Notes: generated by a model from the letters alone, not told the origin. Shown: positions 7,922 to 56,411, counted from the first letter of the stretch. The stretch is 63,286 bases of DNA from Alphaproteobacteria bacterium (GCA_028817795.1 JAPPOU010000057.1:775-64060); one strand, 5' to 3'. Translations and numbers: made by a program.

Positions 7922-8227
7922 CGTGTGCCTCAAAAGCTGCATGTGACAGGATGCGCCCTGCCGCCCTTTAGCCGGGCGTGGGGCTGATCCTTGGTGTCGT
8001 TGTTGAAAACGGTACGATTCCTACCATGATGCCGGGGGTGCGTCCAGCCGGGATTCTTTATTATTAACATAATATCTAGGAAAAAAACGGAATAGAGGCA
8101 TGATTTATCTGAATTTACTTGTTTTTCCTCTTTTTATGATGCTTGAGTTATGTTTATTTATTGTGATTTAATGCCACCTTTGATATATACATAACATTAA
8201 TAATTGAAAGAGAATGCAAGAATCGTC

Positions 8228-10046: not shown

Positions 10047-10057
10047 GGGCGCGTACC

Positions 10058-29317: not shown

Positions 29318-29668
29318 GCCAGAGAGCCTGTAAGCCGGGTTCTGTACGCTTTTAAGGGCGTGATGACCATTCCTCTGGGGCGGCGGTTACCCGCTGCCTC
29401 TAGCAGCCGACCCGGAAGACAAGCCGAAAACAGCTTATGCGCCTTCCCTATTTGGCCTTGCTCCCGGTGGGGTTTACCCTGCCAGCCCCGTTACCGGGCC
29501 TGCGGTGCGCTCTTACCGCACCATTTCACCCTTACCCCATAAAGAGGCGGTATATTTTCTGTGGCACTGTCCCTGCGGTTACCCGCGCCGGACGTTATCC
29601 GGCACCGTGTTTTCGTGGAGCCCGGACTTTCCTCCCGTTAAAAACAGGCGGCCATCCGGCTCTCTGGC
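29318..29668 (-). ncRNA. rnpB: RNase P RNA (bacterial type A)
   Basis: Reverse complement carries CGGGAGGAAAGTCCGGGCTCCAC (29615-29637), GGTAAGGGTGAAATGGTGCGGTAAGAGCGCACCGCAGG, and ACAGAACCCGGCTTA (29331-29345). P1 pairs GCCAGAGAGCC at both ends, and a T-run follows the 3' end. Ends are approximate to within a few nt. Confidence 0.9.
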
Positions 29669-37658: not shown

Positions 37659-37800
37659 GACATACCTCCTTGAACGTTCTTGTTAAATATGGAGCGTATG
37701 CCGTAAAAGGCAAGTGGCAGGAAACCTTTTCATAAGCGGTTGATGCAAAAGGATGTATGTGCTAGTTTCGGCTATCTGTCAAAACCGGGATATTCATTGC

Positions 37801-38889: not shown

Positions 38890-40001
38890 AAAAAAAGCGT
38901 GATGTTGAAATCAACAAGATCAAAACAGTCTTTGGTGAAAGCGCTGTTCCCGCGCCGGAAAAAATAAACGCTCCCATTGACGGGTGGCACAACACGTTTT
39001 TACACCGTTTAAGCGATTCTATTCATACGTCCGCTGCAGAAATACGCACTGCCGTTGAGATGGGGGCGGATGTGAATATCCAAAACAAATCCGGTGAAAC
39101 GCCCTTGATGCTGGCGATCAGCAAGGATAACGGGGATGTCGTGCGCGCGCTGTTGCAGCAGGGGGCCGATATTGTTGTGCCATCGGGCAAGAAAAACGAA
39201 CTGCCCTTTAATGCCGTTACGCAGGCGATTTGCGCCGGGAACGTGAAGATGCTGCAAATTGTGCTGGAAGAAGGTGGCGGCAGGTATGTCAATTACCAAG
39301 GCAATACGAAATGGCGTGAAGCGGATGGCATGTCAGGGGTAGCGCTGTTAGCGCGGGCCTATAAAACGCAAGGCATGCGTTTGGAAGAAGACAAGTATAT
39401 AAAAATGGCCCGCTTGCTTATTCAGGCAGGTGCATTTCTGGAAGGGGAGAGCGGGCCGAGTGATTTGACGCCGCTGATGCATGCCGCAACGGCGGGCAGT
39501 ACGGCGCTGGTGCACCTGATAATGGAATCGGGGGCTGATCTGAACTATCAGCATTCCAAAACGGGCCATACGATATTGCACCACATTGCGGATACGGAAT
39601 ATCATTTGATGGCAACGCCCTTAATTGCGCGTGGCGCACGTACGGATATTCGTGATCGCGAAGGCCGTTTACCGCTGCATATTGCGGCACGGGATGCCCG
39701 GTTATATATGATGAAGGCGTTGTTGCAACATAGCGCGGCAGATGTAAATGCGCGCGTTGTCGGCGGGCGTGAAGAAACGCCCCTGCATTTGGCGGCGCAG
39801 GCGAATAGCCTTATTTGCGCTGAAACCCTTCTTGAAAAAGGCGCCGATCCGGCGGCAACGGATTTGAGCGGCCATACGCCCAAGCAGCATGCCGACCCAA
39901 AGGCCGCTGTCTATGCCCCCCTTGCGCGGGCCGAGGATGCGGCGCTTCGCCGCCGTCATGATGAGGGGTATCACAAGGCGTATAAGCCGCCATCTCCGTG
40001 A
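38886..40001 (+). CDS. ankyrin-repeat protein
   Basis: ANK repeats (GETPLMLAISKDNGDVVRALLQQGAD, LTPLMHAATAGSTALVHLIMESGAD, ETPLHLAAQANSLICAETLLEKGADP). ATGA overlap with the upstream gene. Confidence 0.8.
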   Translation: MKKKRDVEINKIKTVFGESAVPAPEKINAPIDGWHNTFLHRLSDSIHTSAAEIRTAVEMGADVNIQNKSGETPLMLAISKDNGDVVRALLQQGADIVVPSGKKNELPFNAVTQAICAGNVKMLQIVLEEGGGRYVNYQGNTKWREADGMSGVALLARAYKTQGMRLEEDKYIKMARLLIQAGAFLEGESGPSDLTPLMHAATAGSTALVHLIMESGADLNYQHSKTGHTILHHIADTEYHLMATPLIARGARTDIRDREGRLPLHIAARDARLYMMKALLQHSAADVNARVVGGREETPLHLAAQANSLICAETLLEKGADPAATDLSGHTPKQHADPKAAVYAPLARAEDAALRRRHDEGYHKAYKPPSP

Positions 40002-40091: not shown

Positions 40092-42815
40092 TTAGAGGCT
40101 GGGGCCGTTTCTTCTTTTCTTTTGTTTCTTCTTGGCCGGTTGCGGCTTTGGCTTGTTCTCGTTGGCCGCAGGCTTGGTGGCTGGTGTTGCCGCTTTGACC
40201 TTTGGTGCAAAGCCTTTGTCGCTGTTATCAAGAACGATTTTAACTGTGCCGTGCTTTTCTTTCGCAGCTTCAACGGCAGCCTTGTTCTCGTCTTGCAAGA
40301 GCCATTTGCCAAGGGGATTTGCGATTTTCTCGCGGATGACCTTGCGCAGCGGGCGGGCGCCCATGGCGGGGTTATAACCGTCTTTGGCCAACTTGTCCTT
40401 CATGGCATCCGTCACTTCCAGTGAAACGCCGGACATGCCGGTTCCGGAGGCTTTGGACAGGCGGTCATTGACCTTGTCCACTTCGCGGTCAACCAGGTTG
40501 CGGATAACCTGCTGATCCAGCGGGACGAAGGTGACAAAGCCGCCAAGCTCTTCAATCCTGTTTATCATTTCAGGCTTGTTAAAGAACTTTTTGCGCGCTT
40601 TGGCGTAGTCTGCTTCAAGGTCGCGGGCCTGTGCGTCAGTATCCTTGCCTTCAAGGTTCGACAAGGCAGAGCCAAAGCCTGCGCCGCCGCCTTCCAGCGT
40701 TTTGGTGGCGTTGGCAGCACCCAGGTTCGTCGTCATCACGATGATGACGTTGTTGAACTGGACCGTCTTGCCTTGGTTGTCCGTCATTTTGCCGTCGTTC
40801 AACGGGGCCAAAAGGACGTTAAAGACATCAGGGTGCGCTTTTTCAATTTCATCCAGCAGCAGGATAGAATAGGGCCTGCGGCGGATTTTTTCGGTCAACG
40901 CGGGTTCGGCCGAATCAAAGCCGACATAGCCGGGAGGCGCCCCTGTCAGACGGGACACGGTGTGTTTCTCGCTATATTCCGCCATGTCGAGCTTAATCAG
41001 CGCATCTTCCGTGCCAAACAGGTGGCGGGCCAAAGCCTTGCAAAGCTCTGTCTTACCTGTACCTGTCGGGCCTTGCAGGACAAAACAGCCCCAGGGCTGG
41101 TTCGGATCCGTCAGGCCGCTGCGGGCACCGACGATGCCGTCGACAACCTGCTGGATACCGGGCTGGCCCAAAACTTCCTGCGGCAGCTTTTCTTCCATGA
41201 GGCGGAATTTCTCGCTGTCTTTTTTGGACAGGAAGTCTGCGGGCAGGTTGCTCATTTGCGCAACAGCGTCAATGACGTCTTGGCGGCTAATGACCGTTTC
41301 GTGACGGAAACGCGCCGATGCGGCCGCCATGTCGAGCACTTTTTCGCTCTTGCGGGGCTGGGCTTCGTTCGGGGCATAACGGTTGGTCATGTCGGTGATA
41401 TAGCCGAAATCGTCTTCGGTCAGGTCTTCTGTCAGGCCATGGTGCTCCTTAATCAGCGGCCATGCGCTGTGCAGGATCGCCAGTGTCGCGTCCCTGTCGG
41501 GCGGCAGCAGGGGCAGGCGTTCAAAACGGCTGGAGAGCGCGCCATCTTTTTCGATGTGCTTTTTGTACTCTTCGTCCGTGGTTGTACCCATCACAGAAAT
41601 GCCTTTGGCAGTCAGGAACGGCTTCATGATGTTGCCGGCATCCGTGCCGCCTTCGGCTTTGCCCGATGTGAGCTGCGAGTGGATTTCATCGATACCCAAA
41701 AGGATCTTGCGACCCTTCAGGTAGCCTTCGCGTTCTTTCAGGCCGTCGATCAGGGGCTTCAATTTTTCTTCAAACTGGCCACGGAATTTCGCGCCTGCGT
41801 TCATGGCCTGCAGGTCAAGCGACAGAACACGTGCGCCTTCCAGCGTTTCAGGAATGTTTTCGCCATTCACGATGCGCTGTGCAATGCCAGAGAACATGGC
41901 TGTTTTACCAACACCGGCTTCGCCCGTGAAGCACAGGCTTGCTTGCTTGCGGCGTGACAGGACTTTCAGGGCCTGATCCGTTTCAGCATCGCGGCCCACA
42001 ATGGGGTCCAGATTGCCAGCGGCGGCTTGGTCCGTTAAGTCTTCGCAGAACTGCTTGATAACGGATTCAATCGCCATGTCGGGCACGCGGTATTTCTTTT
42101 GCGGTTGCGTGCGGGTGCCGGCCTTGTTGAATGTTTTAGGCAGTTGTGGCTTATGGCCCGGTACAATCGGTGTATTGGGGCGCGGGCGTGGTGTCGTGTC
42201 CCCTCTTTTGGTAGGGCGGGGTTGTTGCTGGGGTTCAAACGGAACCGGCGGCTCGTTCAGCGCCTCAATATTCATGCGCGCAATGGCGGCGCGGCCAGAT
42301 GTATGCTGCGGCGGGAATGGCAGGTTGCCGATCACGTCTGAATCAATGCTGATGCGGCCTGCAGCGCTGCGGGCCACGCCGGGGTCATTGGCGTCGATTG
42401 TGTCGGTAAACGAAACGGGAAATTGGGAGACATCGATATCAACGTTCAGCACACGCGCAATGGAATCTGCCGTCAGGTTATAGTCAATGTTGATGTCGCC
42501 GTTGACCTTACTGCTAAAGGACATTTCGTATGTGACGGGCACACCCTTCAGGTTTTTGGGGGTGCCTGTGAAGTCTGTTTTGATCTGGAAAGCCATTGTG
42601 GTGTAACCAAAACCACCGCCCGGCAGCTTGCCGATTTCAGGCTGGTCCTCAAACGCAAAAATGGTGCTGTTGGGCTTCAGCGAGGGATTCGTTTCCGTTT
42701 CCGAAAAAGCGAGAATCTGTCGAGGCCTGCCATTGTCATAGCGTACAGCGTATTCGCGGTCGCCGTCAGCATCAACAAGATAAAGGTAGCCATGGTAGTT
42801 ATTATTATGTGCCAT
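40092..42815 (-). CDS. ClpA/ClpV-like double AAA+ ATPase with a non-canonical N-terminal domain
   Basis: D1: DPIVGRDAE, Walker A GEAGVGKT, Walker B LLGIDEIH. D2: Walker A GPTGTGKTE, Walker B ILLLDEIEKAHPDVFN, sensor MTTNLGA. No ClpB-type middle domain. The first 260 aa or so are unrelated to Clp_N. Lys-rich C-terminal tail. Confidence 0.9.
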   Translation of the reverse strand: MAHNNNYHGYLYLVDADGDREYAVRYDNGRPRQILAFSETETNPSLKPNSTIFAFEDQPEIGKLPGGGFGYTTMAFQIKTDFTGTPKNLKGVPVTYEMSFSSKVNGDINIDYNLTADSIARVLNVDIDVSQFPVSFTDTIDANDPGVARSAAGRISIDSDVIGNLPFPPQHTSGRAAIARMNIEALNEPPVPFEPQQQPRPTKRGDTTPRPRPNTPIVPGHKPQLPKTFNKAGTRTQPQKKYRVPDMAIESVIKQFCEDLTDQAAAGNLDPIVGRDAETDQALKVLSRRKQASLCFTGEAGVGKTAMFSGIAQRIVNGENIPETLEGARVLSLDLQAMNAGAKFRGQFEEKLKPLIDGLKEREGYLKGRKILLGIDEIHSQLTSGKAEGGTDAGNIMKPFLTAKGISVMGTTTDEEYKKHIEKDGALSSRFERLPLLPPDRDATLAILHSAWPLIKEHHGLTEDLTEDDFGYITDMTNRYAPNEAQPRKSEKVLDMAAASARFRHETVISRQDVIDAVAQMSNLPADFLSKKDSEKFRLMEEKLPQEVLGQPGIQQVVDGIVGARSGLTDPNQPWGCFVLQGPTGTGKTELCKALARHLFGTEDALIKLDMAEYSEKHTVSRLTGAPPGYVGFDSAEPALTEKIRRRPYSILLLDEIEKAHPDVFNVLLAPLNDGKMTDNQGKTVQFNNVIIVMTTNLGAANATKTLEGGGAGFGSALSNLEGKDTDAQARDLEADYAKARKKFFNKPEMINRIEELGGFVTFVPLDQQVIRNLVDREVDKVNDRLSKASGTGMSGVSLEVTDAMKDKLAKDGYNPAMGARPLRKVIREKIANPLGKWLLQDENKAAVEAAKEKHGTVKIVLDNSDKGFAPKVKAATPATKPAANENKPKPQPAKKKQKKRRNGPSL

Positions 42816-43049: not shown

Positions 43050-43616
43050 TTACGCTTGGCTTGAAAGCGCTGTCAAAATTTTACTGTAGTGCAGGCCGGT
43101 AATCATTGTCCCGTTCACTTGTGCGTAAAAGGGGTTTTTGCCCCAGCAGGTGAACCCAGAGGCTTCAAATAACGTAATGGCACCGCGCTGCGTTTCGCGA
43201 ATATCCAAATGCAAAACCTGATACCCCATGGCTATGGCCAGTTTTTCGGCGGTGGCGACAAGCATCTGCCCGCAGCCCATGCGGCGGACGTGCGGCGCGA
43301 CGAACGTTGCGATCAGCGTGGCGGAAAAAGCCTGCGCTTCGTTGTGGCGGGTGGGTTCGACAAGCTGCGTTGCGCCACATACAGCGCCATCAACGCGAGA
43401 GATTAACAAGTGTCGTTCCGGCACGGCCAGCACGCCTTTCCAGTATCTTTCCAGCGTGTCGATGCCGGGGGATGTGACCCAGCCAAAACCGCCGCCGCCG
43501 TTAATGGTGGCTTCCGTGGCTTCGGCAAGATCGTGAAGGTCGTTGGACGACAGCGTATCGACAATATCGACGCTGACGTGTGGCAGGGCATTATTAAGTA
43601 GACGCATGGCTGTCAT
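43050..43616 (-). CDS. GNAT-family N-acetyltransferase
   Basis: Acetyl-CoA binding motif FVAPHVRRMGCGQMLV...AIAMGYQVLHLDI...AITLFEASGF. Confidence 0.8.
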   Translation of the reverse strand: MTAMRLLNNALPHVSVDIVDTLSSNDLHDLAEATEATINGGGGFGWVTSPGIDTLERYWKGVLAVPERHLLISRVDGAVCGATQLVEPTRHNEAQAFSATLIATFVAPHVRRMGCGQMLVATAEKLAIAMGYQVLHLDIRETQRGAITLFEASGFTCWGKNPFYAQVNGTMITGLHYSKILTALSSQA

Positions 43617-44365: not shown

Positions 44366-45253
44366 ATGGAAAAAAAGGTAACGGCGCTGATATGCGGTTT
44401 TGCAGCGATGTTGATGCTGGTCCTTCCGTGTCGTGCTGATGCCGCGCAGCTTCAGACATCGCAGAGCAAAGAGTCTGCCGTGCAGCGCGCGCGTAATCTT
44501 GACGTACCGCCCGGCCTGCGCCGTTTGGTCGGAGCAGGTGGCGATATTGAATATGCAGGGCAATACTATGGTCTGGATGCTTGGCGTATCATCGATAAAA
44601 ACAAAGAAGGGCCGCAGCGCGATAAATATGCTTACGTGACAAAAGAAGGCGGCATGCTGCTGGGTATTTTGACGCACCCTGACGGCACCGTTGTGACGGA
44701 TGTGAAACGGGCCGTGCATGGCAAAAATGTAGCGGGCCGTCAGGCAGCTTTACCCGGCGCAGCTTTTGCGCATTCGCAATCCGCGCGCACGGAAAAAGTC
44801 TATGCGCAGGTCGAAGCGGCGCATTGGGTGTCATTGGGGCAGCCGGATGCGCCTTATATTTACGCCTTTATTAATACGCATTGCGACCATTGCAAGGAGT
44901 ATTGGCGGGCGCTGGAAAACGCTGTCAGCCTTGGTCAATTGCAAGTGCGCCTTATTCCCTTTGGCCGCATGGGGCAGAACCGCCATGCAGGTGCCGCGCT
45001 TTTGGAGGCAAAAGATCCTTTGAAAGTGTGGTCTGATTTTGTGCGCGGCAATGAATCTGCATTGGCAGCGGTGCAGCCTTCGCAAAAATCATTGCAGAAC
45101 ATTGACCGGAACAGCGCTTTGTTCACGGATTGGAAGATTGCCAGTATTCCCTTTACGCTGTATCGCCGCCCGGCAGATGGGCGCATTTTGGCGGTGCAGG
45201 GCGTGCCGGACAATATTCTTGTGCTTTTGTCCGATTTGACGGGTAAGGGATAG
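44366..45253 (+). CDS. DsbC/TrbB-like periplasmic thiol-disulfide isomerase
   Basis: Signal peptide (MLMLVLPCRADA) and a thioredoxin-fold CxxC (NTHCDHCKEYW). Sits at the head of the T4BSS gene string. Confidence 0.7.
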   Translation: MEKKVTALICGFAAMLMLVLPCRADAAQLQTSQSKESAVQRARNLDVPPGLRRLVGAGGDIEYAGQYYGLDAWRIIDKNKEGPQRDKYAYVTKEGGMLLGILTHPDGTVVTDVKRAVHGKNVAGRQAALPGAAFAHSQSARTEKVYAQVEAAHWVSLGQPDAPYIYAFINTHCDHCKEYWRALENAVSLGQLQVRLIPFGRMGQNRHAGAALLEAKDPLKVWSDFVRGNESALAAVQPSQKSLQNIDRNSALFTDWKIASIPFTLYRRPADGRILAVQGVPDNILVLLSDLTGKG

Positions 45254-45263
45254 GAATAATCGC

Positions 45264-45719
45264 ATGATTTCAGCGCAAGCCCTTGCAGTATGTATTTTTA
45301 CGGCGGCGCAGACCTATGCCGTTCCTCCGTCCGTTCTTCTGGGGATTCTCAGCGTGGAGGGCGGCAGGCCCGGCCTTGCGGTGCGCAATACCAACGATAC
45401 GTATGATTTAGGCCCCATGCAGATCAATACGATATGGATTCCACAGTTGGCCCGGCATTGGCGGGTTAGCAAGGCCGAGGCCAAGCGTCTGGTGCGCGAC
45501 GAGCCTTGCGTGAACATTGGGGTGGGGGCCTGGATTTTGCGAACCAAGATCAATGACTCCGGCAGTTTGTATAACGGTATTGCGTGGTATCATTCCGCCA
45601 CGCCGCATATCGGGCAGCGCTATCGTAAAAAGGTTTTGGCCGCCATGAAAAAGTATCGGCAGGTGCGCCAGCCCAGTGATTTGCTGGCCGCCTATCCGCA
45701 GCCGCGCAAGCCCGGCTGA
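45264..45719 (+). CDS. lytic transglycosylase (SLT domain, VirB1/P19-like)
   Basis: LLGILSVEGG (catalytic Glu), YDLGPMQIN, and AWYHS-type motifs. Confidence 0.85.
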   Translation: MISAQALAVCIFTAAQTYAVPPSVLLGILSVEGGRPGLAVRNTNDTYDLGPMQINTIWIPQLARHWRVSKAEAKRLVRDEPCVNIGVGAWILRTKINDSGSLYNGIAWYHSATPHIGQRYRKKVLAAMKKYRQVRQPSDLLAAYPQPRKPG

Positions 45720-45829: not shown

Positions 45830-46330
45830 ATGGATATTCTCATGAACAAAAAATCCTTGGCACTTGGCGTGATGCTGATTGCGGCGGTATCTGCCTGCGG
45901 TCCGATCACGAAACTGGACCAGCAGTTGGTGGCGGAACCTGATCCTGTGGCCCTGCGCCTTGCCAATGCGGTGGATCGCGCATCTGCCGCTTTGCAAACG
46001 CTGGCATCTGTTGAGCAAGCGCGTCATCCGGGCGTTGCTGTACAGGCTGTGCCCTATGCGCCGCAAGAATTGCGCCGGGCCGTGTCCGTGAAGTGGAATG
46101 GCCCCATTGAACCCATCACGCGCCGCATGGCGGATCGTGCGGGGTATCAAATGCATATCAATGGTGATGTGCCACCCGTGCCCGTTATTGTCAGCTTGCG
46201 TGCTGCTGAAAAATCAGTCGTCGAGGTGTTGCGCGATATTGGTTTGCAGGCCGGGCGTCGCGCCACGATTGCCGTCGACCCTGAGCGCCGCATTGTAGAG
46301 CTGAATTACGCACCCCTGTCAGGGGAGTAA
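45830..46330 (+). CDS. dotD: type IVB secretion lipoprotein DotD (TraH-like)
   Basis: Lipobox LIAAVSAC. The C-terminal domain VSVKWNGPIEPITRRMADRAGYQMHINGDVPPVPVIVSLRAAEKSVVEVLRDIGLQAGRRATIAVDPERRIVELNYA closely resembles my recollection of Legionella DotD. The start could be ATG 45842. Confidence 0.85.
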   Translation: MDILMNKKSLALGVMLIAAVSACGPITKLDQQLVAEPDPVALRLANAVDRASAALQTLASVEQARHPGVAVQAVPYAPQELRRAVSVKWNGPIEPITRRMADRAGYQMHINGDVPPVPVIVSLRAAEKSVVEVLRDIGLQAGRRATIAVDPERRIVELNYAPLSGE

Positions 46331-46334
46331 CTGA

Positions 46335-47501
46335 ATGACGTTGCCGCGATTGTCCTTTTTGTCTCTTTCGGCCCGCGCCGGTGTTGCAGTAGGCGTTGCG
46401 CTGTTGTTGTCAACGGCGCCGCAGGCCTGGGCGCAACAGAACGACTCTGCTTCGGTTGCGGCGCAGCAGCAGGCGCTGGCACAGATGCTGAGCGGTCAGG
46501 TGCCGCCGGCCCCGACGCTGTCAACAACGCGGGGACGTCAAGCACCAACGTCTTACTCCTTGCCCAAACTAACGGGCGGCGGATCGGGCGTGCTGACGCA
46601 AGATGAATTTGATATGGCGCTGGAGGACAGGGACAGCGCCCCCTCCAAAGCGTACAAGCTGTCACAGGAACGCAAGCGCCAGCGCGAGATCGAGCAACAC
46701 GGCAATAGCGACCTGCCCGAAGAAAACGAATATGACGCACCGCCGGGTCTTTTGGATTTGATGGTCATGGATCGTCATGAAGAATCTTTGGCGTTGGCCG
46801 ATGCGGCAGATGGCGACGCGCCGGATTCAGCATTGGACCTTAGGCGTGATGCGCAAAAAGAGGCGTCCTTGTCTTTTGGTGCGCGCGGCGGGTTGGCGCA
46901 TCGCAACTACGAGATCATGCAGCGCCTGCACGGGTTTGAAAACACGCTCGATAAAGTCTTTAATTTCCGCATGCTTTTGGTCAATACACCGTCAGGGCTG
47001 TTGATTGAGCCGCCGATTATCCGGGAGTCGCTTGATTCCATGGTGATTACGGCAGGCGGTAACGAAGCTGCTGTTGCGGACCGTGTGCTGGATATTAACA
47101 AGCAGGCAAAAATTGTATCCGCGCCGCGTGACTGGCGGGAATATTTGTTCCAGCCGTGGACATCCGAAGTGCCGCCACCGCCGCGCATTCTTTGGCCGGA
47201 AAATAATTTGGAGCGCGCACGCTGGAAAGACTGGGTCAAGCAAGGCTGGGAAGCTGGCGTGGCACAGGCAGATTCAATGTTCGAGGTTAACCTGAACAGG
47301 TTGACAGCGGATTATAACGGCATGGTGCGTTATCGCATGCTGTTGGCAGAGGGGATGGTGTCCCAACCCTATGCCATGCACGAGGATCGCGGGGTGACGG
47401 GCACAAAAACTGTCATGCGCGTTGGTGATCGCGCGCTCCGCATTACGGGACCGTCTCAATTTCTTGTAGAGTCTGATCTATGGAAGCCGGCAGACCGGTA
47501 A
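46335..47501 (+). CDS. dotC: type IVB secretion protein DotC (TraI-like)
   Basis: Signal peptide, then a C-terminal DotC-like core (FNFRMLLV...GLLIEPPII...RDWREYL...GW..G..QA). Lies between dotD and dotB. Confidence 0.75.
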   Translation: MTLPRLSFLSLSARAGVAVGVALLLSTAPQAWAQQNDSASVAAQQQALAQMLSGQVPPAPTLSTTRGRQAPTSYSLPKLTGGGSGVLTQDEFDMALEDRDSAPSKAYKLSQERKRQREIEQHGNSDLPEENEYDAPPGLLDLMVMDRHEESLALADAADGDAPDSALDLRRDAQKEASLSFGARGGLAHRNYEIMQRLHGFENTLDKVFNFRMLLVNTPSGLLIEPPIIRESLDSMVITAGGNEAAVADRVLDINKQAKIVSAPRDWREYLFQPWTSEVPPPPRILWPENNLERARWKDWVKQGWEAGVAQADSMFEVNLNRLTADYNGMVRYRMLLAEGMVSQPYAMHEDRGVTGTKTVMRVGDRALRITGPSQFLVESDLWKPADR

Positions 47502-48697
47502 GTCTTCTTAAAAAGGGTATCGACGACCTGAAAGAAACCTGGCCGGGCGAGCCGGACAGGTTTTTGGAAACGCACGTCGATCCGTTTTTGTTGTGGTGCG
47601 TGAAGCAGGGATCGTCCGATATCACCTTCCAAAGCTCGCGCCCCGTTTTTAACGAGATTCACGGCACGTTGTACCCCGGCACGTATCGTTCGCTGGATGC
47701 GGCGGATATGGCCTCGATCGTCACGCGCCTTTACGGGACGGAAGCGCTGGCCATTCTTGCGGGTGGCGCGGATATTGATATGTCGTACGAGGTCATGGTT
47801 GACCGCTTTAACCGCACACGCTTTCGCGTCAACATGACGGCGATTTTGACGGACGGGCGTGACGGCATCCAGATCACGATGCGGACGTTGCCCTCTGCGC
47901 CACCCACGATGAAGCAGTTGAATATCGAGCAGGAAATTATCGACGCCTGGCGTCCGCGTCAGGGGCTGGTATTGATTACGGGGCCGACCGGTTCGGGTAA
48001 GTCAACATTGCTGGCGGCAGGGAACCGCATGTTGATCGAAGACCCGCATGGGTGCGGTAAAATGCTGACCTATGAAGCGCCGATTGAATTCACTTACGAT
48101 TCCGTGCAAAGCCGCCGCAGTCTTGTGGCGCAGTCTGAAATTCCGCGCCATTTGCCCAGCTTTGCCGCCGGCGTGCGTAACGCGCTGCGGCGCAAACCTG
48201 AAATTATCCTGGTGGGCGAGGCGCGTGACCGGGAAACGATTTCCGCCGCGATTGAGGCGGGCCAAACGGGCCACTGCGTTTACGCCACGTGTCATACGAC
48301 GGGCGTTGCCGCAACAATCCGCCGGATGGTTTCGACCTTTGAGCCTTCGGAGCGAACGGAGCGTGCCTTTTCCCTGATGGAAACCATTCGCCTGATCGTG
48401 ACGCAGACGCTGGTGCCGAAAGTGGGCGGCGGGCGTGTCGCTTTACGTGAATATATGGAATTTTCAGAAGAGCGCCGTGAAGAGCTTCTCGATATGTCCT
48501 TTGAAAAATGGCCTGTTGAGCTGATGCGCATGGTGGAACAATACGGAAAAACAATGGAGGGGTCAGCGCGTGACGCCTTTAACGCGGGGTTAATAGAAAG
48601 ACGCTATTATCTGCTGTATGCAAAAGGGTCAAAGCTGAAAGAGGATGACCCGGCGGTGGCGCCGATTGCGCCAGAAGAAACAGCGCCCGCCCACTAG
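47480..48697 (+). CDS. dotB: type IVB secretion ATPase DotB (PilT/VirB11 superfamily)
   Basis: Walker A GPTGSGKST, Asp box IILVGEARD, His box TGHCVYATCHT. Overlaps the dotC end by 22 nt. Confidence 0.88.
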   Translation: MEAGRPVSLLKKGIDDLKETWPGEPDRFLETHVDPFLLWCVKQGSSDITFQSSRPVFNEIHGTLYPGTYRSLDAADMASIVTRLYGTEALAILAGGADIDMSYEVMVDRFNRTRFRVNMTAILTDGRDGIQITMRTLPSAPPTMKQLNIEQEIIDAWRPRQGLVLITGPTGSGKSTLLAAGNRMLIEDPHGCGKMLTYEAPIEFTYDSVQSRRSLVAQSEIPRHLPSFAAGVRNALRRKPEIILVGEARDRETISAAIEAGQTGHCVYATCHTTGVAATIRRMVSTFEPSERTERAFSLMETIRLIVTQTLVPKVGGGRVALREYMEFSEERREELLDMSFEKWPVELMRMVEQYGKTMEGSARDAFNAGLIERRYYLLYAKGSKLKEDDPAVAPIAPEETAPAH

Positions 48698-48728: not shown

Positions 48729-49022
48729 ATGGCTAATCAGTACGAAGAGGCGGGCTGGCACTGGCGAAATTCCATGAAGCCTGTGCGGTTTTTTAATCTG
48801 GATGGCCGTGCCGGTTTTTTCGTGGTGGTGTTCATTATCCATGCCCGTTTGTACACGTTATGTTTGTTGCTGACGGTCTTTTTTGTATTATGGTTGCTTG
48901 AGCGGCGCGGACTTTCGTTTCCGGCGGCGTTGCGCTCCATAAGGGTCTGGATGGTCGGGCCGTATCGACCGGGGTTGATGCGCCTGCGCCGTGCGAAAAT
49001 GAAGGACACGGGATCGACTTGA
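48729..49022 (+). CDS. icmT: type IVB secretion protein IcmT (TraK-like)
   Basis: Small membrane protein. HWRNSMKPVRFFNLDGRAGFF...H.R...FF..W...RGLSFPAALRSIRVWMVGPYR matches the IcmT pattern as I remember it. Confidence 0.8.
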   Translation: MANQYEEAGWHWRNSMKPVRFFNLDGRAGFFVVVFIIHARLYTLCLLLTVFFVLWLLERRGLSFPAALRSIRVWMVGPYRPGLMRLRRAKMKDTGST

Positions 49023-49119
49023 TTCTCCGGCTGTTATCAGGCATATCTATAAAGCAAAGTAGTTGGCTTTTTTTGTGCCCTTTGGGTGCGGCACGCTTAT
49101 CAGGATCAAAGAGATAACC

Positions 49120-50484
49120 ATGGCATCTTCCTCAACCCGTTTGACTGCAGCTCTTTTGACCACGGCCTTGATTGCCGGGTTTTCTGTTTCCACGCACGCC
49201 GCGTTTGAGTGGCGCGGTCCGCTGGTGCCGCCTGAAATGCCGGCGCCACCCGCACAGGTCGAGGCACCCGCTGCCGCATCACCTGTTGTCGACGGCATGG
49301 GTGGGCTAGAGCCTGTTATCATGTGGGATAAAATTCAGGCACCCGTACCGGCGATGCCAGCTGTTCCGGCAGCGAATGTAGAGGCCTCTCCCGTTGTACA
49401 ACCTTCTGTTGCGGTTGACCCTGCTGACATGTTGTCCGGCTTTGGATCGGAACTGCCATTGGTTATTGCGCTTCGGCAGGTTGTGCCCGCCGAATATCAA
49501 ATGTCTTTTTCCACTGGCGTCAATCCCGGCACGGTCGTGTCATGGCAAGGCGGCAAGGCGTGGCAGGATGTTTTGTCTGACATGCTGGCACCACATGTTT
49601 TGTCATGGCGGGTTGAGGGGCAGACCGTGATCGTTGGTTACTTTGAACCCGCGCCGCATGTGCAGGAACAGGCCGCGGTTATGCCTGCAGCGCCGGTGCC
49701 GCAACAATCGCCCGCACCGATGCGTGACGTGGAAAATGTAGAAGCTGTACCTTTAACGCCGCCGCAGCCCGTGCCTGCGCAGGTAGTGCAAGGCAGTCCT
49801 GGCAAGACGCAAGACGCCACGATGACGCCCGGCCGCCGTATTCTTTTGGGGCGGGCTTCCCCCGTCGGTGTTCAGGTGTCTGCTTCCGCGCAGCAGCAAG
49901 AACAGCAGCAATTGCAAAAACAATTACAACAGGTGGAGATGCAAGAGCCTGTTCATATCCGGCGTACGCGCCCCTCGTCTTTGTTAGAGCGCTGGGGGCT
50001 TGTGAAGCCGAAAGACGCTGATCCGGCTGTGACGGTATCTGGCCCCGTTGATGCTGTTGCGGATGACGCAACAGACCCGGTTGCACCTCCTGTTTCACTG
50101 ACGGCGCCTGAAGGCGTTGCCGCGCAGGGTGAGGCATCGTTGGAGGGACAGGGCGAAGATGCTGCTGTAGATCTGGACGCATCTGAAATGGAAACGAAAA
50201 CATCTTCCTCTTCCGCAGACTCGCAATGGCAGGGTGGTGAGGGCCAGACCTTGCGCGCCCTTTTGGAAGAATGGTCTGATACTGCGAACGTAGAATTATA
50301 TTGGTCTATAGATTACGATTATCGTCTCGACCAAGATATTGCGTTGTCCGGTACCTATGATGAGGCTGTGAGCGCTGTGTTGGACAGATTTTCCGATGCG
50401 CGGCCTCAGCCCTATGGGCAGTTGCACAATTCCGGCGCAGATAAACGGGTTTTGGTTGTCAAATCCTATGACATATCAGGTTAA
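49120..50484 (+). CDS. exported protein with a TcpQ/PilL-like C-terminal domain
   Basis: Signal peptide (ALIAGFSVSTHA). N-terminal module LPLVIALRQVVPAEYQMSF...VVSWQGGKAWQDVL, a Pro/Gln-rich linker, and C-terminal WQGGEGQTLRALLEEWSDTANVELYWSIDYDYRL...GTYDEAVSAVLDRF, which is TcpQ_C-like. Confidence 0.65.
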   Translation: MASSSTRLTAALLTTALIAGFSVSTHAAFEWRGPLVPPEMPAPPAQVEAPAAASPVVDGMGGLEPVIMWDKIQAPVPAMPAVPAANVEASPVVQPSVAVDPADMLSGFGSELPLVIALRQVVPAEYQMSFSTGVNPGTVVSWQGGKAWQDVLSDMLAPHVLSWRVEGQTVIVGYFEPAPHVQEQAAVMPAAPVPQQSPAPMRDVENVEAVPLTPPQPVPAQVVQGSPGKTQDATMTPGRRILLGRASPVGVQVSASAQQQEQQQLQKQLQQVEMQEPVHIRRTRPSSLLERWGLVKPKDADPAVTVSGPVDAVADDATDPVAPPVSLTAPEGVAAQGEASLEGQGEDAAVDLDASEMETKTSSSSADSQWQGGEGQTLRALLEEWSDTANVELYWSIDYDYRLDQDIALSGTYDEAVSAVLDRFSDARPQPYGQLHNSGADKRVLVVKSYDISG

Positions 50485-50644: not shown

Positions 50645-51973
50645 ATGCGCAGATTTGGCGGTTTTAAGCTTTTGTTTGTGGTTTTCGGGTTTTTTGCCCT
50701 GTTCACGCTTGGCTATACCGCAACCAGCGTTGTGACCTCCGACCAGGCGCAGGCGCAAATCCCCAGTTGGTGTTTTAACATGTCGTGTACCAGCCCGTTT
50801 ACGGGGGTGGCGGTTGAGCTTGGGATTATCATGGGCCGCACGTTTACAACGGGCATGTTCTACGTTGTAGGTTCGTTGTCCGTTTATTTTGCCGTGGCGA
50901 TGGCGTCATTTGATTTGCAGGTGATACAGGCCATCAGCGCAACCTTGAACAAATGGCTCGATTTCTGGAACACCATGTGGCGATACAACATGGAACCAGC
51001 CTTTCAGGATATGACGGACCAGTTGACGACCATGAATACCGATCAGGCCCGTGCCATCGGTAGCTTTGCGGACATGATGGATAAAAACCGTGCCATCCGC
51101 AAACTGCGGGAAGAACAGGTACGCGCGCACCGCGAGCTTAGCCCCGGCGAGAATGTATGCGTTGCGGCTTCGACCATGGGGGGGCTTGTGCAAGCCTCAA
51201 CGTTCTCGCGTACATATAACGCCTTGGCCCCACAGGATATGCTGCGTCGCCAGCATGTGGGTGGCGGTTCCGCGCAGGCGGATATGGCGGGCCGCGTAGC
51301 GCGTTATGCGACACGTTATTGCGATCCGGCGGAAAATGCGGGCATTACCCTATGTCCGGGCGGTCCTGCCGTGCCGGGCTTTATTGGGGCAGACCTGGAT
51401 GTCGCGGGGCGTGTTTTTGCAAGGGATACGATTGATATCCGTGATCCGAACGTGAAGCAGGCCGTTGATGATCTGGTGCAAAATATTGCAGAGCCGTTTG
51501 TTCCGGACCCTGTGCCGGAAATGTCCTTGACGGGGACAGGGGGCGCGGAGGCTTTCTTGCAGCGTCAAAGCCGTCAGGCGAAGAGGCAGGTGATCTACGA
51601 TAATCTTTATCACATTATTTCACGTCGTATTCCGGGGTCCGGATTGGAAGTTGGTACATACGTCAACGAGGTGCGGCTGGAGGCGGGCATGGACCCGGCG
51701 CTGCTGGTGAACAACCCCAGCCGTCATGAGGTTTTGGAGGTTATGGCGAATGAGCGTTACCGCACGGGTAAATATGCGGTGCGCATGATGACAGAGCCGG
51801 AACATGTTGAGCGTGAATTGGCGGTGCAAGAAGGCATCAAGAGCATGCAAATGGCCGATATGCTTGATTTGATGGATCGGTATTCTCTCTTGGTCGCGGC
51901 GCGCGTGGGTGACAGCATTAATAAAAGATATGGCCGTGTAAAACAGGGTCAGTATCAGGAGGTCGGGCAGTAG
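50645..51973 (+). CDS. secreted Cys-loop family protein, tandem paralog P1
   Basis: N-terminal hydrophobic signal or anchor. Motifs LDFWNTMWRYNMEPAFQDMTDQL, DQARAIGSF, YCDPAENAGITLC, IDIRDPNVKQAVDDLVQNIAEPFVPDPVPE. Confidence 0.7.
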   Translation: MRRFGGFKLLFVVFGFFALFTLGYTATSVVTSDQAQAQIPSWCFNMSCTSPFTGVAVELGIIMGRTFTTGMFYVVGSLSVYFAVAMASFDLQVIQAISATLNKWLDFWNTMWRYNMEPAFQDMTDQLTTMNTDQARAIGSFADMMDKNRAIRKLREEQVRAHRELSPGENVCVAASTMGGLVQASTFSRTYNALAPQDMLRRQHVGGGSAQADMAGRVARYATRYCDPAENAGITLCPGGPAVPGFIGADLDVAGRVFARDTIDIRDPNVKQAVDDLVQNIAEPFVPDPVPEMSLTGTGGAEAFLQRQSRQAKRQVIYDNLYHIISRRIPGSGLEVGTYVNEVRLEAGMDPALLVNNPSRHEVLEVMANERYRTGKYAVRMMTEPEHVERELAVQEGIKSMQMADMLDLMDRYSLLVAARVGDSINKRYGRVKQGQYQEVGQ

Positions 51974-51974
51974 C

Positions 51975-53492
51975 ATGAACGACGATAACAGCAAAGAGCA
52001 ACCGCGGCAGCGGCCCGCAGGCGTAATGCGCATGGGCGTTGCCGTTTTCCTGCTTGTGGCGTTCCTGTCCGGGTATGCGACGGCGCCTGTTATGAACATG
52101 CCCCCGGCTCTGGCGCAGCTTATGGATGACCCGTGGCTGATTGATGATGATTTGGGCATGCTGGGCACCGTTATTGCGGATTCAACAACGGTGCTGTCAA
52201 GTATTCCGACATGTGTTGCAACACCACCTGTCACTTATGGATGGCTTTGTGTTGCGCCATGTTCGACGAGTTTGTTGACACAACCTCTTTTAACATTGCT
52301 GCAGTCGCGCCTTGAATCGGCGGGAGATGATTTGCGCGTCTTTATATCGCAAAATATTGTCGACGGTATCGTCGCTGTTTTGTTAAACGGGATTAACCAA
52401 ACCGAGTTAAACCTGATCGATTGGTGGGATACGTTTTGGTATTATAACCTTCATCCTGCCATGCAAGACATGACGGAACAGTTCCAATTGTCGCTGGCCG
52501 ACCAAGTGCGTGCCATGGCGATGGCGGCAGATACGCAAATACAGAACGAAGCTGCAAAAATGCAAAGCAAGGCGGAAACGGCTGACGGCGCGATGCTGCC
52601 ATCTGAAAACGTTGCCGTCGTCGCGACAATGATTGGCGGGCAACAACGGCAGAGCGAGATTGCAGAAGCCGTGCGCCATGCGCAAGAACGGCGGACGCAA
52701 GATCGTGGCTTGAATATGGTGGGAACACCGGCGGCGCGGGATGGGGGACTGGCGGAAACGGAGCGCCATAACGATTATGACGCTCTTTTCTGTGATCCCG
52801 CTTCCAATAATGGCGTGAACAATTGCGCGACCACGCGTGTTTCGACAAATCCGGCCTTGCAAAATGCGGATACGCAGCCGACGCGTGTTATTATGAACCG
52901 GCTCACAATTAACGTTGATTCAGATGACGCGAACGGTGACGGCGTTGTTGATGATGCCGATGCTGACGGGCAACCTGATCTGGTCGAAGCCGTAGATGCG
53001 GCGATTGACAACATGCTGCCGCCAATAGAGCTGGACCCTATACCCGAAAAGATTTTGGAAGCTGCGCCGGGGCAAGAGCGTTATCTGGAGCGTCGTTCTT
53101 TGCTGGCGCGTGACGGCGCCATGCGCAGCGCAACGCGGTTGTCAACAAGCTGGCGCATGCCGGGAACCCAGATTGGCCAATGGGTCGATGAGCTCCGCCA
53201 GACCGCAGGCGTGCCGCCGGGCGATATTTCCAGTAACCCCAGTTATAGGGAAGTGATGCACGCCATGGTGGTGGATCGTTTTAATAACGGTAAATATGGC
53301 ATGAGCATGCTGGATAACAGTACTGTGGCGGAAAAAGAAAAGCTGGTGCTGAACAGCCTGACATTAATGCAGTTAAGGGATTATCACGAACTGTTGCAAA
53401 GGACGATCTTGACATTGGCGGTGCAAGTATCCTTGACGGCAGAGGAAATAGAGCGTTCACGTCCTGATATCATGCAGCGTATGCCGCAATAG
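51975..53492 (+). CDS. secreted Cys-loop family protein, tandem paralog P2
   Basis: Motifs IDWWDTFWYYNLHPAMQDMTEQF, DQVRAMAMA, FCDPASNNGVNNC, AVDAAIDNMLPPIELDPIPE. Starts 1 nt after the P1 stop. Confidence 0.7.
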   Translation: MNDDNSKEQPRQRPAGVMRMGVAVFLLVAFLSGYATAPVMNMPPALAQLMDDPWLIDDDLGMLGTVIADSTTVLSSIPTCVATPPVTYGWLCVAPCSTSLLTQPLLTLLQSRLESAGDDLRVFISQNIVDGIVAVLLNGINQTELNLIDWWDTFWYYNLHPAMQDMTEQFQLSLADQVRAMAMAADTQIQNEAAKMQSKAETADGAMLPSENVAVVATMIGGQQRQSEIAEAVRHAQERRTQDRGLNMVGTPAARDGGLAETERHNDYDALFCDPASNNGVNNCATTRVSTNPALQNADTQPTRVIMNRLTINVDSDDANGDGVVDDADADGQPDLVEAVDAAIDNMLPPIELDPIPEKILEAAPGQERYLERRSLLARDGAMRSATRLSTSWRMPGTQIGQWVDELRQTAGVPPGDISSNPSYREVMHAMVVDRFNNGKYGMSMLDNSTVAEKEKLVLNSLTLMQLRDYHELLQRTILTLAVQVSLTAEEIERSRPDIMQRMPQ

Positions 53493-53521
53493 CAATAATT
53501 AAGAACCGGGAAAGGGAAGAG

Positions 53522-54970
53522 ATGAAAAAACCGGTGAAGAAAAGGTACAAAAAAGACAAGCGTAGAACCGTTGGTGTACGCATGTTGTTCCTTGTTGCGC
53601 TTTTCTCCTTGTCTTTCGTGGCTTCTGCCCCCCGTGTGTCGCATGCGCAGGTGTGTGAAATGCCCTTTGTGCCGCCTATTGCGGCAGGGGTTTCGGCAGG
53701 CGTTATGGAGTTAATGATCCAAACGATGCTGTTCCCTAGCAACCCCGGCAGTCCGCCACGATTGTCAGGCAACATTGATGGTCTTGCGGACATTGGCCTG
53801 GACGGTGCGACGGGCGGCTGCATGGCTGATTTTGATATTTTGGCCCCTATTCGGAGCGTGCCGGTTGTAGGCAGCATTATTTCAGGTGTTCTTGGCTCAC
53901 AGCTGGGGTTGCAGGGCGATGCGGGCTATGTCTTTGGCGGCACAAACTGCTTGGATGAACGTGTGCGTGACAGGATGTACCAGTTCTGGGATCAAGAGCT
54001 GGGGCATGCCTTCAGGATGATGACTGCGCAATTGGCGTCATCCGATGTCAACACAGCCCGTATGCTGGCATCGATTTTTGATGCCAGCAACTTGTCTGAT
54101 AGCGGCGTTGCACACCAGTTAAATGAAGCAAAAGCCCGCCGTGACCATTTGGTGAGTGATGAAATGTGCCGTTTCGATACGGCGGCTGTGTCCCTAAGGG
54201 AAACACAGTATATTTCAAAAGGCGTGGCAACGGCCTCTGCTGTCGAAGTGAACCAGTATGGTGATAACCGGCAGGGTGGGCCGGCGGCGGCAGGCACATC
54301 TTCGTTTGTACCGGCACGGATGCAGAACTATAGAACGGCATTGTGCGATCCTGCGGCTAATGGTGGCACGGCACCTTGCGCTGCTGCAGGATCGCAGCCA
54401 AATGCGGGTGTCTTGCCCAGTAAAACGATATTCGGCCACGAAACCATAGACCTGACCGATGCCGATACGCGCACGGCTGTATCGGAGCTGGGCATGAATA
54501 TTACGGGTTTTCATCCGCCTGAGCCGCAATCATCTCGTGTGCAGGCTTCGACGGCTGGAAGGGAGGGGCGGCAGCGGAATAGAGAGTATTTGGCGCAGAT
54601 GGATGCCGTAACAGGCCTTGTGGGCAGTGTTGTGGGCGATCGTGCACCCGGCCCGGTTAATACCGATGTGCGTGATAGCCGCGTTAAATCCGGCGTACAG
54701 CCGGCAGATGCATCTAGCCGCCCTAGCGAAAAAGAAACGTTGCAGTCAACGCAAGATCAGTTGGCAGATTCTAACTTTTACGTGAACATGAATGACGTAA
54801 AGGGCACAGTTGCGCAAAAAGAAGCTTTTTATAAAGCCTATAATGCCCTGATGATCTACAAGATCATCGAGAAACAGGAAAGAATATCGAACGCCTTAGC
54901 GATTGAAACGGCAAACATGCTGGAAATGCGCTATGCGAAGGACGCATTGCCGCAGTTTGCGCCGCAATAG
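53522..54970 (+). CDS. secreted Cys-loop family protein, tandem paralog P3
   Basis: Motifs YQFWDQELGHAFRMMTAQL, LCDPAANGGTAPC, IDLTDADTRTAVSELGMNITGFHPPEP. Signal-like N-terminus. Confidence 0.7.
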   Translation: MKKPVKKRYKKDKRRTVGVRMLFLVALFSLSFVASAPRVSHAQVCEMPFVPPIAAGVSAGVMELMIQTMLFPSNPGSPPRLSGNIDGLADIGLDGATGGCMADFDILAPIRSVPVVGSIISGVLGSQLGLQGDAGYVFGGTNCLDERVRDRMYQFWDQELGHAFRMMTAQLASSDVNTARMLASIFDASNLSDSGVAHQLNEAKARRDHLVSDEMCRFDTAAVSLRETQYISKGVATASAVEVNQYGDNRQGGPAAAGTSSFVPARMQNYRTALCDPAANGGTAPCAAAGSQPNAGVLPSKTIFGHETIDLTDADTRTAVSELGMNITGFHPPEPQSSRVQASTAGREGRQRNREYLAQMDAVTGLVGSVVGDRAPGPVNTDVRDSRVKSGVQPADASSRPSEKETLQSTQDQLADSNFYVNMNDVKGTVAQKEAFYKAYNALMIYKIIEKQERISNALAIETANMLEMRYAKDALPQFAPQ

Positions 54971-54992
54971 GAGGAGGAAAGGAGTGAAGACA

Positions 54993-56411
54993 ATGAGTAA
55001 CGCTATGAACAAGGTGTGGCGTACATACAGCTTTTTGATGGCAATCATGGTATTGCCCTTCATGCTGGTCTCATCCGTGCCTGCATCTGCGCAAACCTGC
55101 GGCCCTGTGACATCGGCATGTGAAACATCCGGCTCTGCTGATCCGATCCTTGAAGAGTTTATGGAGCATATGATCGATTATTTCGATTATTTTATTACAG
55201 AAGTTGGAAAGCATATTGAATATGAGTTGGAGAGTGTTGCCGCCGAAGAGGTCAACGAACGCCTGATTCAGTTTGATGAATATATGTATCCGCCTGTCGA
55301 AGACTGGTGGGATGATGGCAGTGATCCTGATATTAACGCGACATCAACATTGCCGGCCTTAAAGGCTATGGCGCACCAGCTCAGCTTTGCCAAAGTGGAC
55401 CAGACGCGTCAAATTGGCTCATTTTTGGATGCCTTGATGGTCAATGAACGCATTCGCGCGCGCCAGTCATCGCGCGCGTCGGCCAGAAAACGGTACAATG
55501 TTTCTGAATCTTCTTGCCAAATGGATTCTTTGGCCTTGAGCGGCGGTCAGGGGCAGGCTTATCGGTTGTCTCACGATTTGGCACGGACCATGGCATTGGT
55601 GGATACGAAGCGGCGAAACAACCATTTGGATGTAATTAGCCCGCCCGTTGTGGCCTCAGCGGAAAAAGACTGGTCTCTCATAAAAAAGGCGCATGCGGCA
55701 CCGGGCGCGCCGAGTGGCGGATTTGCGCTGGACCTCACTCAGCGCTGGGGGGAGTATACGGCTGATTTCTGTGATCCGTCCAAGGGCGATCAGGGGTGCG
55801 CTGCAGCAGGCACAATGCCGGGATGCGATCGTGACATTCCGGGCCTCATCTGGGGTGACAGACAGACGATAGATATGCGTGATAGCCAAAACCGCCAGTG
55901 CATTGAAGCTGCGCTCCGAAACTTGGTCTCACCCTTTGTGCCGGACCCCTTGGCGCGCACGGTTCTAGATTCTGATGCCGGGCGGCGGGAGATGCTGTAT
56001 CGTCGTGCGCGTGATGCGCGTTTAAATGCAATCATGAACGGCATCAAAATGCTGGCCGAGCGTGGCGGCGGCGGCACCGGAGCGGACGTGCGTGACGTGC
56101 GCGTGGCGGGCGGCATGGTGGATTACGGCGGATTGCCCTCGAACGTGGCGGCGCCGGGCGATGCCAGCTACAGCGAGATCAGAAACGCCATGCTTCGCTC
56201 GCGTGTCATGAACCCGGCCTATATCACCCGTCTAGTGACGCAAGGGGATGCGGTGGCGCGTGAATATACATCTGTCAAGGCAGCGGGGCATCAGTTGACA
56301 GCCGACCTTATCAAGAGGGTGGAGGAAATGATGTTTATGGAAGCTGCCGCCTATGCCCATACGCTGGATATGGAGCCAGAAGCCGGGGCAAGCAAAGATA
56401 TACCGGGATAA
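54993..56411 (+). CDS. secreted Cys-loop family protein, tandem paralog P4
   Basis: Start ATG 54993 behind AGGAGGAGGAAAGGAG. Motifs LPALKAMAHQL, DQTRQIGSF, FCDPSKGDQGC, IDMRDSQNRQCIEAALRNLVSPFVPDPL. Confidence 0.7.
   Translation: MSNAMNKVWRTYSFLMAIMVLPFMLVSSVPASAQTCGPVTSACETSGSADPILEEFMEHMIDYFDYFITEVGKHIEYELESVAAEEVNERLIQFDEYMYPPVEDWWDDGSDPDINATSTLPALKAMAHQLSFAKVDQTRQIGSFLDALMVNERIRARQSSRASARKRYNVSESSCQMDSLALSGGQGQAYRLSHDLARTMALVDTKRRNNHLDVISPPVVASAEKDWSLIKKAHAAPGAPSGGFALDLTQRWGEYTADFCDPSKGDQGCAAAGTMPGCDRDIPGLIWGDRQTIDMRDSQNRQCIEAALRNLVSPFVPDPLARTVLDSDAGRREMLYRRARDARLNAIMNGIKMLAERGGGGTGADVRDVRVAGGMVDYGGLPSNVAAPGDASYSEIRNAMLRSRVMNPAYITRLVTQGDAVAREYTSVKAAGHQLTADLIKRVEEMMFMEAAAYAHTLDMEPEAGASKDIPG

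Follow-up and report, generated by a model that had tools for sequence, protein, structure and literature searches.

Introduction

Among type IVB secretion systems (T4BSS), R64 TraW and Legionella IcmX both stand in the VirB5-equivalent row (PMC12624023). Proteins of the IcmX/TraW kind make up the central stalk or tip of such machines. IcmX has a signal peptide, an N-terminal helix, a loop-rich extended domain and C-terminal helices; it is VirB5-like and forms a homopentamer atop the DotA pentamer (10.1101/2025.06.23.660953), and in one study it was treated as Legionella-specific (PMC8896642). TraW, known from IncI1, IncL-M and Pseudomonas MPF_I systems (families NF033888 and PF28212), is present as a single copy per system, beside traX and traY (the DotA gene). 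Multiplication of such a component has been described in the type IVA Trw system of Bartonella, in which the surface-exposed TrwJ (VirB5) is tandemly multiplied (PMC2610397). We report here on a 63,286-nucleotide stretch of DNA from an Alphaproteobacteria bacterium (GCA_028817795.1, JAPPOU010000057.1:775-64060; hereafter the window), in which four tandem genes, designated P1 to P4, follow a set of T4BSS genes. A first-pass annotation had left their products as an unplaced family of secreted Cys-loop proteins, offering an IcmX/TraW-type T4BSS component as a guess. With profile-profile methods the family is no longer unplaced, and the guess has gained support from TraW homology detected by hhalign, from a Foldseek match of the P1 model to IcmX and from a shared domain layout. 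We conclude that P1-P4 form a deep, separate branch within the IcmX/TraW (VirB5-class) superfamily, being remote relatives and not TraW equivalogs.

P1-P4 resemble TraW in their profile homology to it over the C-terminal 200-280 residues, in a size of 400-500 residues with an N-terminal signal, and in belonging to a T4BSS locus with the matching SLT-DotD-DotC-DotB...IcmT gene order; in addition, TraW is annotated as a lipoprotein in some sources, and most P1 orthologs have a lipobox-like site. Unlike the single-copy plasmid protein, they are four, they fall far under the NF033888 cut-off, and their N-terminal half is not significantly alignable to it. IcmX, the single notable structural match of the P1 model, shares with them the succession of signal peptide, helix, loop-rich region and C-terminal helices, and is likewise exported and encoded near dotB, dotC and dotD. 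It is, however, the product of a single gene and has no sequence-level match to P1-P4, and the helical part of P1, with its long predicted N-terminal helix, is probably longer. The first-pass annotation had drawn a parallel to the VirB6 expansions of Rickettsiales; the amplified trwJ of Bartonella is the closer precedent, as there too a VirB5-class component is tandemly multiplied, but it differs in its turn. In Bartonella the duplicates are young and variable, trwI and trwH (VirB6 and VirB7 genes) have been amplified along with them, and alternative pili are thought to result, whereas P1-P4 belong to a type IVB system, are ancient (about 27% identity), fixed at four and one-to-one across the lineage. 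Copy number is invariant among the complete loci, and no DotA- or DotD-class gene is duplicated; an amplification of the Bartonella type would show varying copy numbers and co-amplified VirB6 and VirB7 genes.

Four ancient paralogs in tandem

The four genes lie on the same strand:

50645..51973, + strand: P1, IcmX/TraW-like paralog 1, 442 aa; Cys loop 51320-51355
51975..53492, + strand: P2, paralog 2, 505 aa; Cys loop 52791-52826; Asp-rich 20-aa insert
53522..54970, + strand: P3, paralog 3, 482 aa; Cys loop 54344-54379
54993..56411, + strand: P4, paralog 4, 472 aa; Cys loop 55770-55799

The open reading frames (ORFs), separated by spacers of 1, 29 and 22 nt, have the lengths and gaps first given for them. 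The Cys-loop positions were exact for P2, P3 and P4 and one base off for P1 (51319-51354 had been given). Longer alternative starts exist at GTG 50618 (451 aa) and TTG 54903 (502 aa), but the start codons of the first-pass annotation are favoured because the N-termini of the orthologs agree with them. Divergent paralogy, also claimed there, holds for every comparison made: all six pairs are significant by BLASTP (E 1e-12 to 1e-42, with 22-29% identity over 330-420 residues), and the four orthogroup profiles match each other at E 1e-61 to 1e-94 in profile-profile comparison. Every one of the collinear motif blocks listed earlier is present in the P1-P4 alignment; the CDP-x(6-8)-C loop is conserved in all four paralogs, and the Asp-rich insert of P2 sits at the variable site. 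At the sequence level, these comparisons show P1-P4 to be true, ancient paralogs.

Homology to TraW and a layout shared with IcmX

Scans of P1-P4 against Pfam and NCBIfam gave noise only. The Pfam set used was without PF28xxx models and IncI TraW itself matches 0 families in it, so that a blank Pfam result is uninformative here; IncI TraW and IcmT, both without a match in this set, are assigned PF28212 and PF28014 in precomputed Pfam tables, which hold a "-" for P1 and its relatives. The first-pass annotation had proposed to place the family by running HHpred and Foldseek, with its hidden Markov model (HMM) and AlphaFold models, against IcmX, TraW, PDB and Pfam. HMMER profiles of 4 or 59 sequences found no real match among PDB sequences, and the placement came from profile-profile comparison instead. 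Weak PDB sequence matches to NPC1 and influenza HA2 were rejected as chance similarity of long helices; in the latter case the P1 helix motif D-x-W-x-x-F-W-x-Y-N (residues ~100-115) is set against the long helix of haemagglutinin HA2 at E 0.1-1, which was judged to be chance. A tblastn search of 72,556 plasmids with P1 gave no match. As a TraW profile also misses IcmX by HMMER, the component class must be highly divergent.

For profile-profile comparison, TraW sequences were taken from IncI1, IncL/M, Serratia, Pseudomonas and Janthinobacterium plasmids and combined in an 11-sequence alignment, with the following hhalign probabilities and E values:

Family profile against one TraW sequence: 73.7%, E 2.9e-5
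Family profile against the 11-sequence TraW alignment: 97.6%, E 3.9e-12, 208 columns
P1 orthogroup profile against the TraW alignment: 94.6%, E 6.7e-8
P2 orthogroup profile against the TraW alignment: 73%, E 3.1e-5
P3 orthogroup profile against the TraW alignment: 86%, E 5.1e-6
P4 orthogroup profile against the TraW alignment: 96.9%, E 2e-10, 281 columns

All four orthogroup profiles align to TraW in one register, in which an upstream single Cys, the Cys loop, an S-x-x-E block and a C-terminal helix containing RE correspond in this order. The motif pairs, family against TraW, are PGENVC and VPDSIC, YCDPxxNxGxxGC and YCTxAEYAxxGGTxVC, and NPSxxEIM...ERF and MSxREFE...GRRY. As judged from these profile alignments, which show it for each of the four, P1-P4 are homologous to TraW.

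The AlphaFold model of P1 (59-sequence alignment; predicted local distance difference test, pLDDT, 82.9; predicted template modelling score, pTM, 0.62) is almost wholly helical, with a signal helix, a helix of ~110 residues (56-165), further helices, a loop-rich middle in which the Cys loop lies and, at the C-terminus, a long helix; the P4 model has a pLDDT of 78. In a Foldseek comparison of the P1 model with PDB, one match alone was notable (E 6e-3, probability 1.0, 197 columns), the second-best being at E 0.6. It was to a chain of 417 residues in 9ngy, which is the Legionella DotA-IcmX protochannel in situ. This chain is IcmX, since DotA is the 1048-residue chain of the entry. The secondary-structure layout of both the P1 and the P4 models agrees with the published layout of IcmX.

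A four-gene set fixed across the lineage

The window's P1 has an identical counterpart, a hypothetical protein, in an Alphaproteobacteria metagenome-assembled genome (MAG). Word-indexed searching for homologs gave 8-9 relatives only, also when a profile of 59 sequences was used. When 1.84 billion cluster representatives were searched exhaustively with a profile, 1399 members of the family came out at E <= 1e-3, 532 of them at E <= 1e-30. We regard these 1399 representatives as the family proper, because canonical TraW gets 13 bits or less with the search profile, a further difference between the two. The source names seen for family members all read "hypothetical protein". The 90%-identity cluster of one 557-aa member (P0059) includes a 51-aa cold-shock protein of Pseudonocardia, probably a clustering artefact.

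Some 47 related loci were collected with 10 kb per side, from 30 species-representative genomes, 11 metagenome contigs and several by-protein look-ups, the loci in genomes and metagenome contigs being found with an alignment of P1 orthologs only. Each of the 30 genomes is a MAG, and their labels read Alphaproteobacteria, Rhodospirillaceae, Micavibrio sp. or "Bdellovibrionales". Gene order is the same in all ~47 loci (DsbG-like, SLT, DotD, DotC, DotB, IcmT, TcpQ, P1, P2, P3, P4), IscX and RNase J usually follow P4, and the gene junctions within the P1-P4 arrays are tight or overlapping. Each of the 28 complete non-redundant loci (those uncut by a contig end) has exactly four family members and never more. 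For every one of the 112 proteins of these loci the best cross-genome match is the paralog at the same position, and the median identity is 39-45% between orthologs versus 27% between paralogs. Such one-to-one orthology, together with the higher identity of orthologs, indicates that the quadruplication predates the sampled lineage and that every copy has been retained. These data show that the four-gene set and the synteny of the module are fixed. They bear out the earlier view that the duplication is old and maintained, given four orthogroups in unvarying order at every locus, and the linkage of the family with dotD, dotC, dotB and icmT that had been proposed for examination is present in all ~47 loci.

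Export signals and accessory domains

At their N-termini P1-P4 have a basic stretch, a single hydrophobic segment and a site of A-x-A-Q type (AQAQ, ALAQ, SHAQ and ASAQ), from which we infer signal-peptide cleavage. A second hydrophobic stretch, present in the P1, P2 and P3 of the window, is not kept in the orthologs, in which the first segment is the sole hydrophobic segment conserved. P1-P4 are therefore probably exported soluble proteins; membrane-anchored or polytopic proteins were rejected on this ground, and of the "signal or anchor" originally described, ending near an AQ site, the signal is favoured over the anchor. A lipobox-like V-T-S-C lies directly ahead of the A-x-A-Q site in 24 of the 31 P1 orthologs compared with 50645-50760 (loci L001-L037). 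The P1 of the window has lost this motif, with Asp replacing the lipobox Cys, and it was not found in P2 or P4 orthologs. P1 may thus be the membrane-proximal, lipid-anchored member of the set.

Several relatives carry additional domains. Among those at the P2 position, P0103 (L046:10001-12169) has N-terminal Big_9/cadherin-like repeats and P0087 (L047:10001-12037) a weak GDSL-lipase-like insert. The P4 ortholog of L044 (13189-15291) is joined via a Gly/Ser linker of ~60 residues to a phage-type lysozyme (Pfam E 8.5e-30); in L045 (13189-15279), on a contig 99.3% identical, an in-frame stop falls exactly at the P4/lysozyme junction and is followed by the same linker and lysozyme. The putative adhesin, lipase and lysozyme fusions hint at exposure toward a target cell, which may be a eukaryote, in view of the many ankyrin genes described below, or a bacterium, in view of the lysozyme fusion. 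The MAG labels say little of lifestyle, because the genome of cultured Micavibrio aeruginosavorus has been reported without a type IV system (PMC3189940).

The secretion module and its surroundings

Seven genes precede P1 in the module:

44366..45253, + strand: exported DsbG/DsbC-like thiol:disulfide isomerase with CxxC = CDHC, first gene of the module (NCBIfam NF008657, DsbG, E 8.8e-24)
45264..45719, + strand: lytic transglycosylase, SLT/TrbN-like, VirB1 class (Pfam SLT E 1e-6; NCBIfam TrbN E 2e-27)
45830..46330, + strand: DotD/TraH outer-membrane lipoprotein (Pfam DotD E 9e-38; NCBIfam T4SS_lipo_DotD E 4.6e-34)
46335..47501, + strand: DotC/TraI lipoprotein (Pfam T4SS_TraI E 2.7e-71)
47480..48697, + strand: DotB/TraJ ATPase (TIGR02524, DotB, E 4.5e-117)
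48729..49022, + strand: IcmT/TraK small inner-membrane protein (NCBIfam IcmT_TraK, NF038220, E 1.3e-21)
49063..50484, + strand: exported protein that has a TcpQ domain at the C-terminus (Pfam TcpQ E 9.5e-13, residues 389-457)

P1-P4 thus share their operon with outer-membrane and ATPase components of type IVB machinery, with a transglycosylase and with a disulfide isomerase of the periplasm. Pfam and NCBIfam confirm the identities of DotD, DotC, DotB and IcmT upstream of P1-P4, as well as that of the DsbC-like isomerase said to head the locus. The CxxC region of the latter aligns with the DsbC-like TrbB of an IncI plasmid (E 0.007), and a DsbG-like gene has the equal position in the related loci. 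A transglycosylase gene likewise precedes DotD in a Pseudomonas MPF_I plasmid, and plasmid DotC/TraI genes match the DotC/TraI of the window at 33-40% identity (tblastn). The DotB product reaches 391 bits with the Dot/Icm DotB model TIGR02524 versus 241 bits with plasmid TraJ. The TcpQ-domain protein, whose length is 309-500 aa among called orthologs, has a long Pro/Ala/Gln-rich low-complexity region, and only its C-terminal ~70 residues match Pfam; its gene is immediately upstream of P1 in all loci, with a spacer of ~160 nt in the window. A promoter and terminator scan of the operon gave no signal above background.

Downstream of P4 an IscX-like gene is followed by RNase J, and the window is otherwise ordinary chromosome, with dnaK, dnaJ, dapB, nth, mltA, a Tim44-like gene and, at 11-28 kb, a complete dcw cell-division cluster. 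Its sole Rfam match at the gathering threshold is a class A RNase P RNA (29315-29667, - strand, 333.7 bits). The idea of a recently acquired island was rejected, as the GC content of the locus equals that of its surroundings and the housekeeping neighbours (IscX, RNase J) are conserved. Upstream of the module, and divergent from it, are a ClpB/ClpA/ClpV-like double-AAA+ protein (40092-42815, - strand) and a GNAT acetyltransferase (43050-43616, - strand). A ClpB-like gene is found at the corresponding place in L001 and L029, and a GNAT gene in L001, L003, L044 and L046.

Seven ankyrin-repeat ORFs occur in the 63 kb, and ankyrin genes flank the module in L003 as well; their products are candidate secretion substrates:

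5026-5559, + strand: ankyrin-repeat ORF
8204-9178, + strand: ankyrin-repeat ORF
9171-10046, + strand: ankyrin-repeat ORF
10043-10966, + strand: ankyrin-repeat ORF
37753-38889, + strand: ankyrin-repeat ORF
38886-40001, + strand: ankyrin-repeat ORF
58368-59483, - strand: ankyrin-repeat ORF

Discussion

The explanation that we favour, with reasonable though not strong confidence, is that P1-P4 are four ancient, non-redundant IcmX/TraW paralogs serving as subunits of a secretion stalk or tip. The proteins would be exported by Sec, and their conserved cysteines (those of the CDP...C loop and a second likely pair) would be oxidised with the aid of the DsbG-like protein of the operon. Next, as a mixed oligomer or in successive layers, they would together build up the stalk or tip in a Dot/Icm-like machine encoded on the chromosome, with the outer subunits (candidates being P2 and P4) facing the envelope of the target cell. 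A role in the stalk or tip as such is quite probable. That all four are built into one assembly is a more tentative proposal, to which we give slightly less than an even chance; the fixed four-gene set suggests that a part made from a single protein in Legionella exists here in a multi-subunit version. Four tandem, divergent and individually conserved paralogs forming one heteromeric tip complex are also found in GspH-I-J-K and FimU-PilV-PilW-PilX, but these minor pseudopilin and pilin sets provide an analogy only, their fold and machine being unrelated to those of P1-P4.

Several observations weigh against this explanation. None of P1-P4 matches NCBIfam NF033888 conj_TraW (equivalog, cut-off 100 bits) even at E 1, for which reason we do not regard them as TraW equivalogs, while IncI TraW, as a positive control, obtains 553 bits; HMMER profiles link them to neither TraW nor IcmX, and their N-terminal halves alone give a weak, not significant alignment to TraW (hhalign E 0.022). 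On the structural side, the template modelling score (TM-score) of the P1 model against the IcmX of 9ngy is low (0.24), and Foldseek finds no IcmX match for the P4 model (best E 3). Four different subunits do not simply fit the fivefold symmetry of IcmX and DotA, IcmX of Legionella being a homopentamer. A DotA/TraY gene is not adjacent to P1-P4, whereas plasmid traW adjoins traX and traY. Furthermore, a BLAST search with 18 IncI Tra and Trb proteins detected no homolog of DotA/TraY, DotO/TraU, DotL/TrbC, DotG, DotH or DotI in either the 63 kb of the window or the 816 kb that the related loci comprise. We nevertheless infer that the module is connected to a complete machine, the rest of which is assumed to be encoded elsewhere, as split loci are normal for T4BSS.

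One might instead regard the four proteins as interchangeable tips, each forming its own homo-oligomer, with different machines carrying different tips to recognise different targets, as has been proposed for the TrwJ variants of Bartonella. Amplified VirB5 copies are indeed known from that genus (PMC2610397), IcmX-class proteins are surface-exposed and fast-evolving (PMC8896642), and individual paralogs bear the accessory adhesin or enzyme domains described above. Yet a repertoire of alternatives does not sit well with a copy number and gene order that are invariant at every locus, nor with a paralog split older than all sampled genomes, in which no recent duplication, loss or gene conversion was seen; a co-amplified VirB6/DotA-class gene, such as accompanies trwJ in trwJ-trwI-trwH, is also lacking. 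We consider interchangeable tips unlikely, and joint assembly more likely than this, given the separate conservation of every paralog and the close packing or overlap of the genes.

The lack of any further detectable T4BSS gene in the window or in the 816 kb of flanks of the ~47 loci raises another alternative, namely that the 11-gene module is a self-contained surface apparatus, made up of an outer-membrane part (DotC/DotD and the TcpQ protein), the DotB ATPase, IcmT, and a VirB5-like fibre or cap. It would agree with the inheritance of the module as a stable chromosomal block beside housekeeping genes, and with the report of no type IV system in the cultured Micavibrio genome (PMC3189940). 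T4BSS loci are, however, commonly split, as in IncI plasmids, which part traH-K from traL-Y, and the flanks covered extend 10 kb per side of each locus. In Legionella, too, the T4BSS genes lie in two regions, and we know of no function of DotB, DotC, DotD or IcmT outside T4BSS, which counts against such an apparatus and makes it decidedly unlikely. Very unlikely, in our view, is that P1-P4 are secreted cargo (toxins or membrane-inserting translocators) sharing merely a helical fold with IcmX. Although IcmX itself is found in culture supernatant, some relatives have lysozyme- or lipase-like domains, and P1, P2 and P3 of the window have a second hydrophobic stretch, that stretch is absent from the orthologs, Sec signal peptides and disulfides indicate a periplasmic route and not the coupling-protein route, the sequence homology to TraW spans more than 200 columns, and strict one-to-one conservation is unusual among effectors.

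Our literature searches brought up nothing on arrays of IcmX/TraW paralogs, nor on the T4BSS of this lineage. The first-pass annotation had regarded the array as the best candidate in the window for an undescribed functional module, which holds for the four-paralog arrangement but not of its component class, IcmX/TraW being known. The undescribed features are the fixed set of four ancient paralogs, its position after IcmT and the TcpQ-domain gene, and the extent of the family, which has no name. Starting from four ancient IcmX/TraW paralogs in a stalk or tip, one might speculate further that a layered or mixed-subunit conduit of four IcmX-like proteins acts as a needle replacing the pilus in a type IVB machine, and that its outer subunits, with adhesin, lipase or lysozyme modules, breach the target envelope for a widespread uncultured, possibly predatory or epibiotic alphaproteobacterial clade; taken as a whole this scenario is rather unlikely.

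Not until 2025 did DotA-IcmX become known as the gated central channel in the Dot/Icm apparatus, and how this channel extends and engages the target membrane is still an open question in the field. Four-paralog systems with natural adhesin, wall-degrading or lipid-degrading fusions could reveal the outward parts of the stalk and its construction. The divergence of the IcmX class defeats standard annotation, the ~1400 representatives all being labelled hypothetical, and surveys of T4BSS probably under-count this component. By this array one can recognise a large alphaproteobacterial clade, so far unstudied, in which a Dot/Icm-like module lies on the chromosome and ankyrin-repeat genes are numerous.

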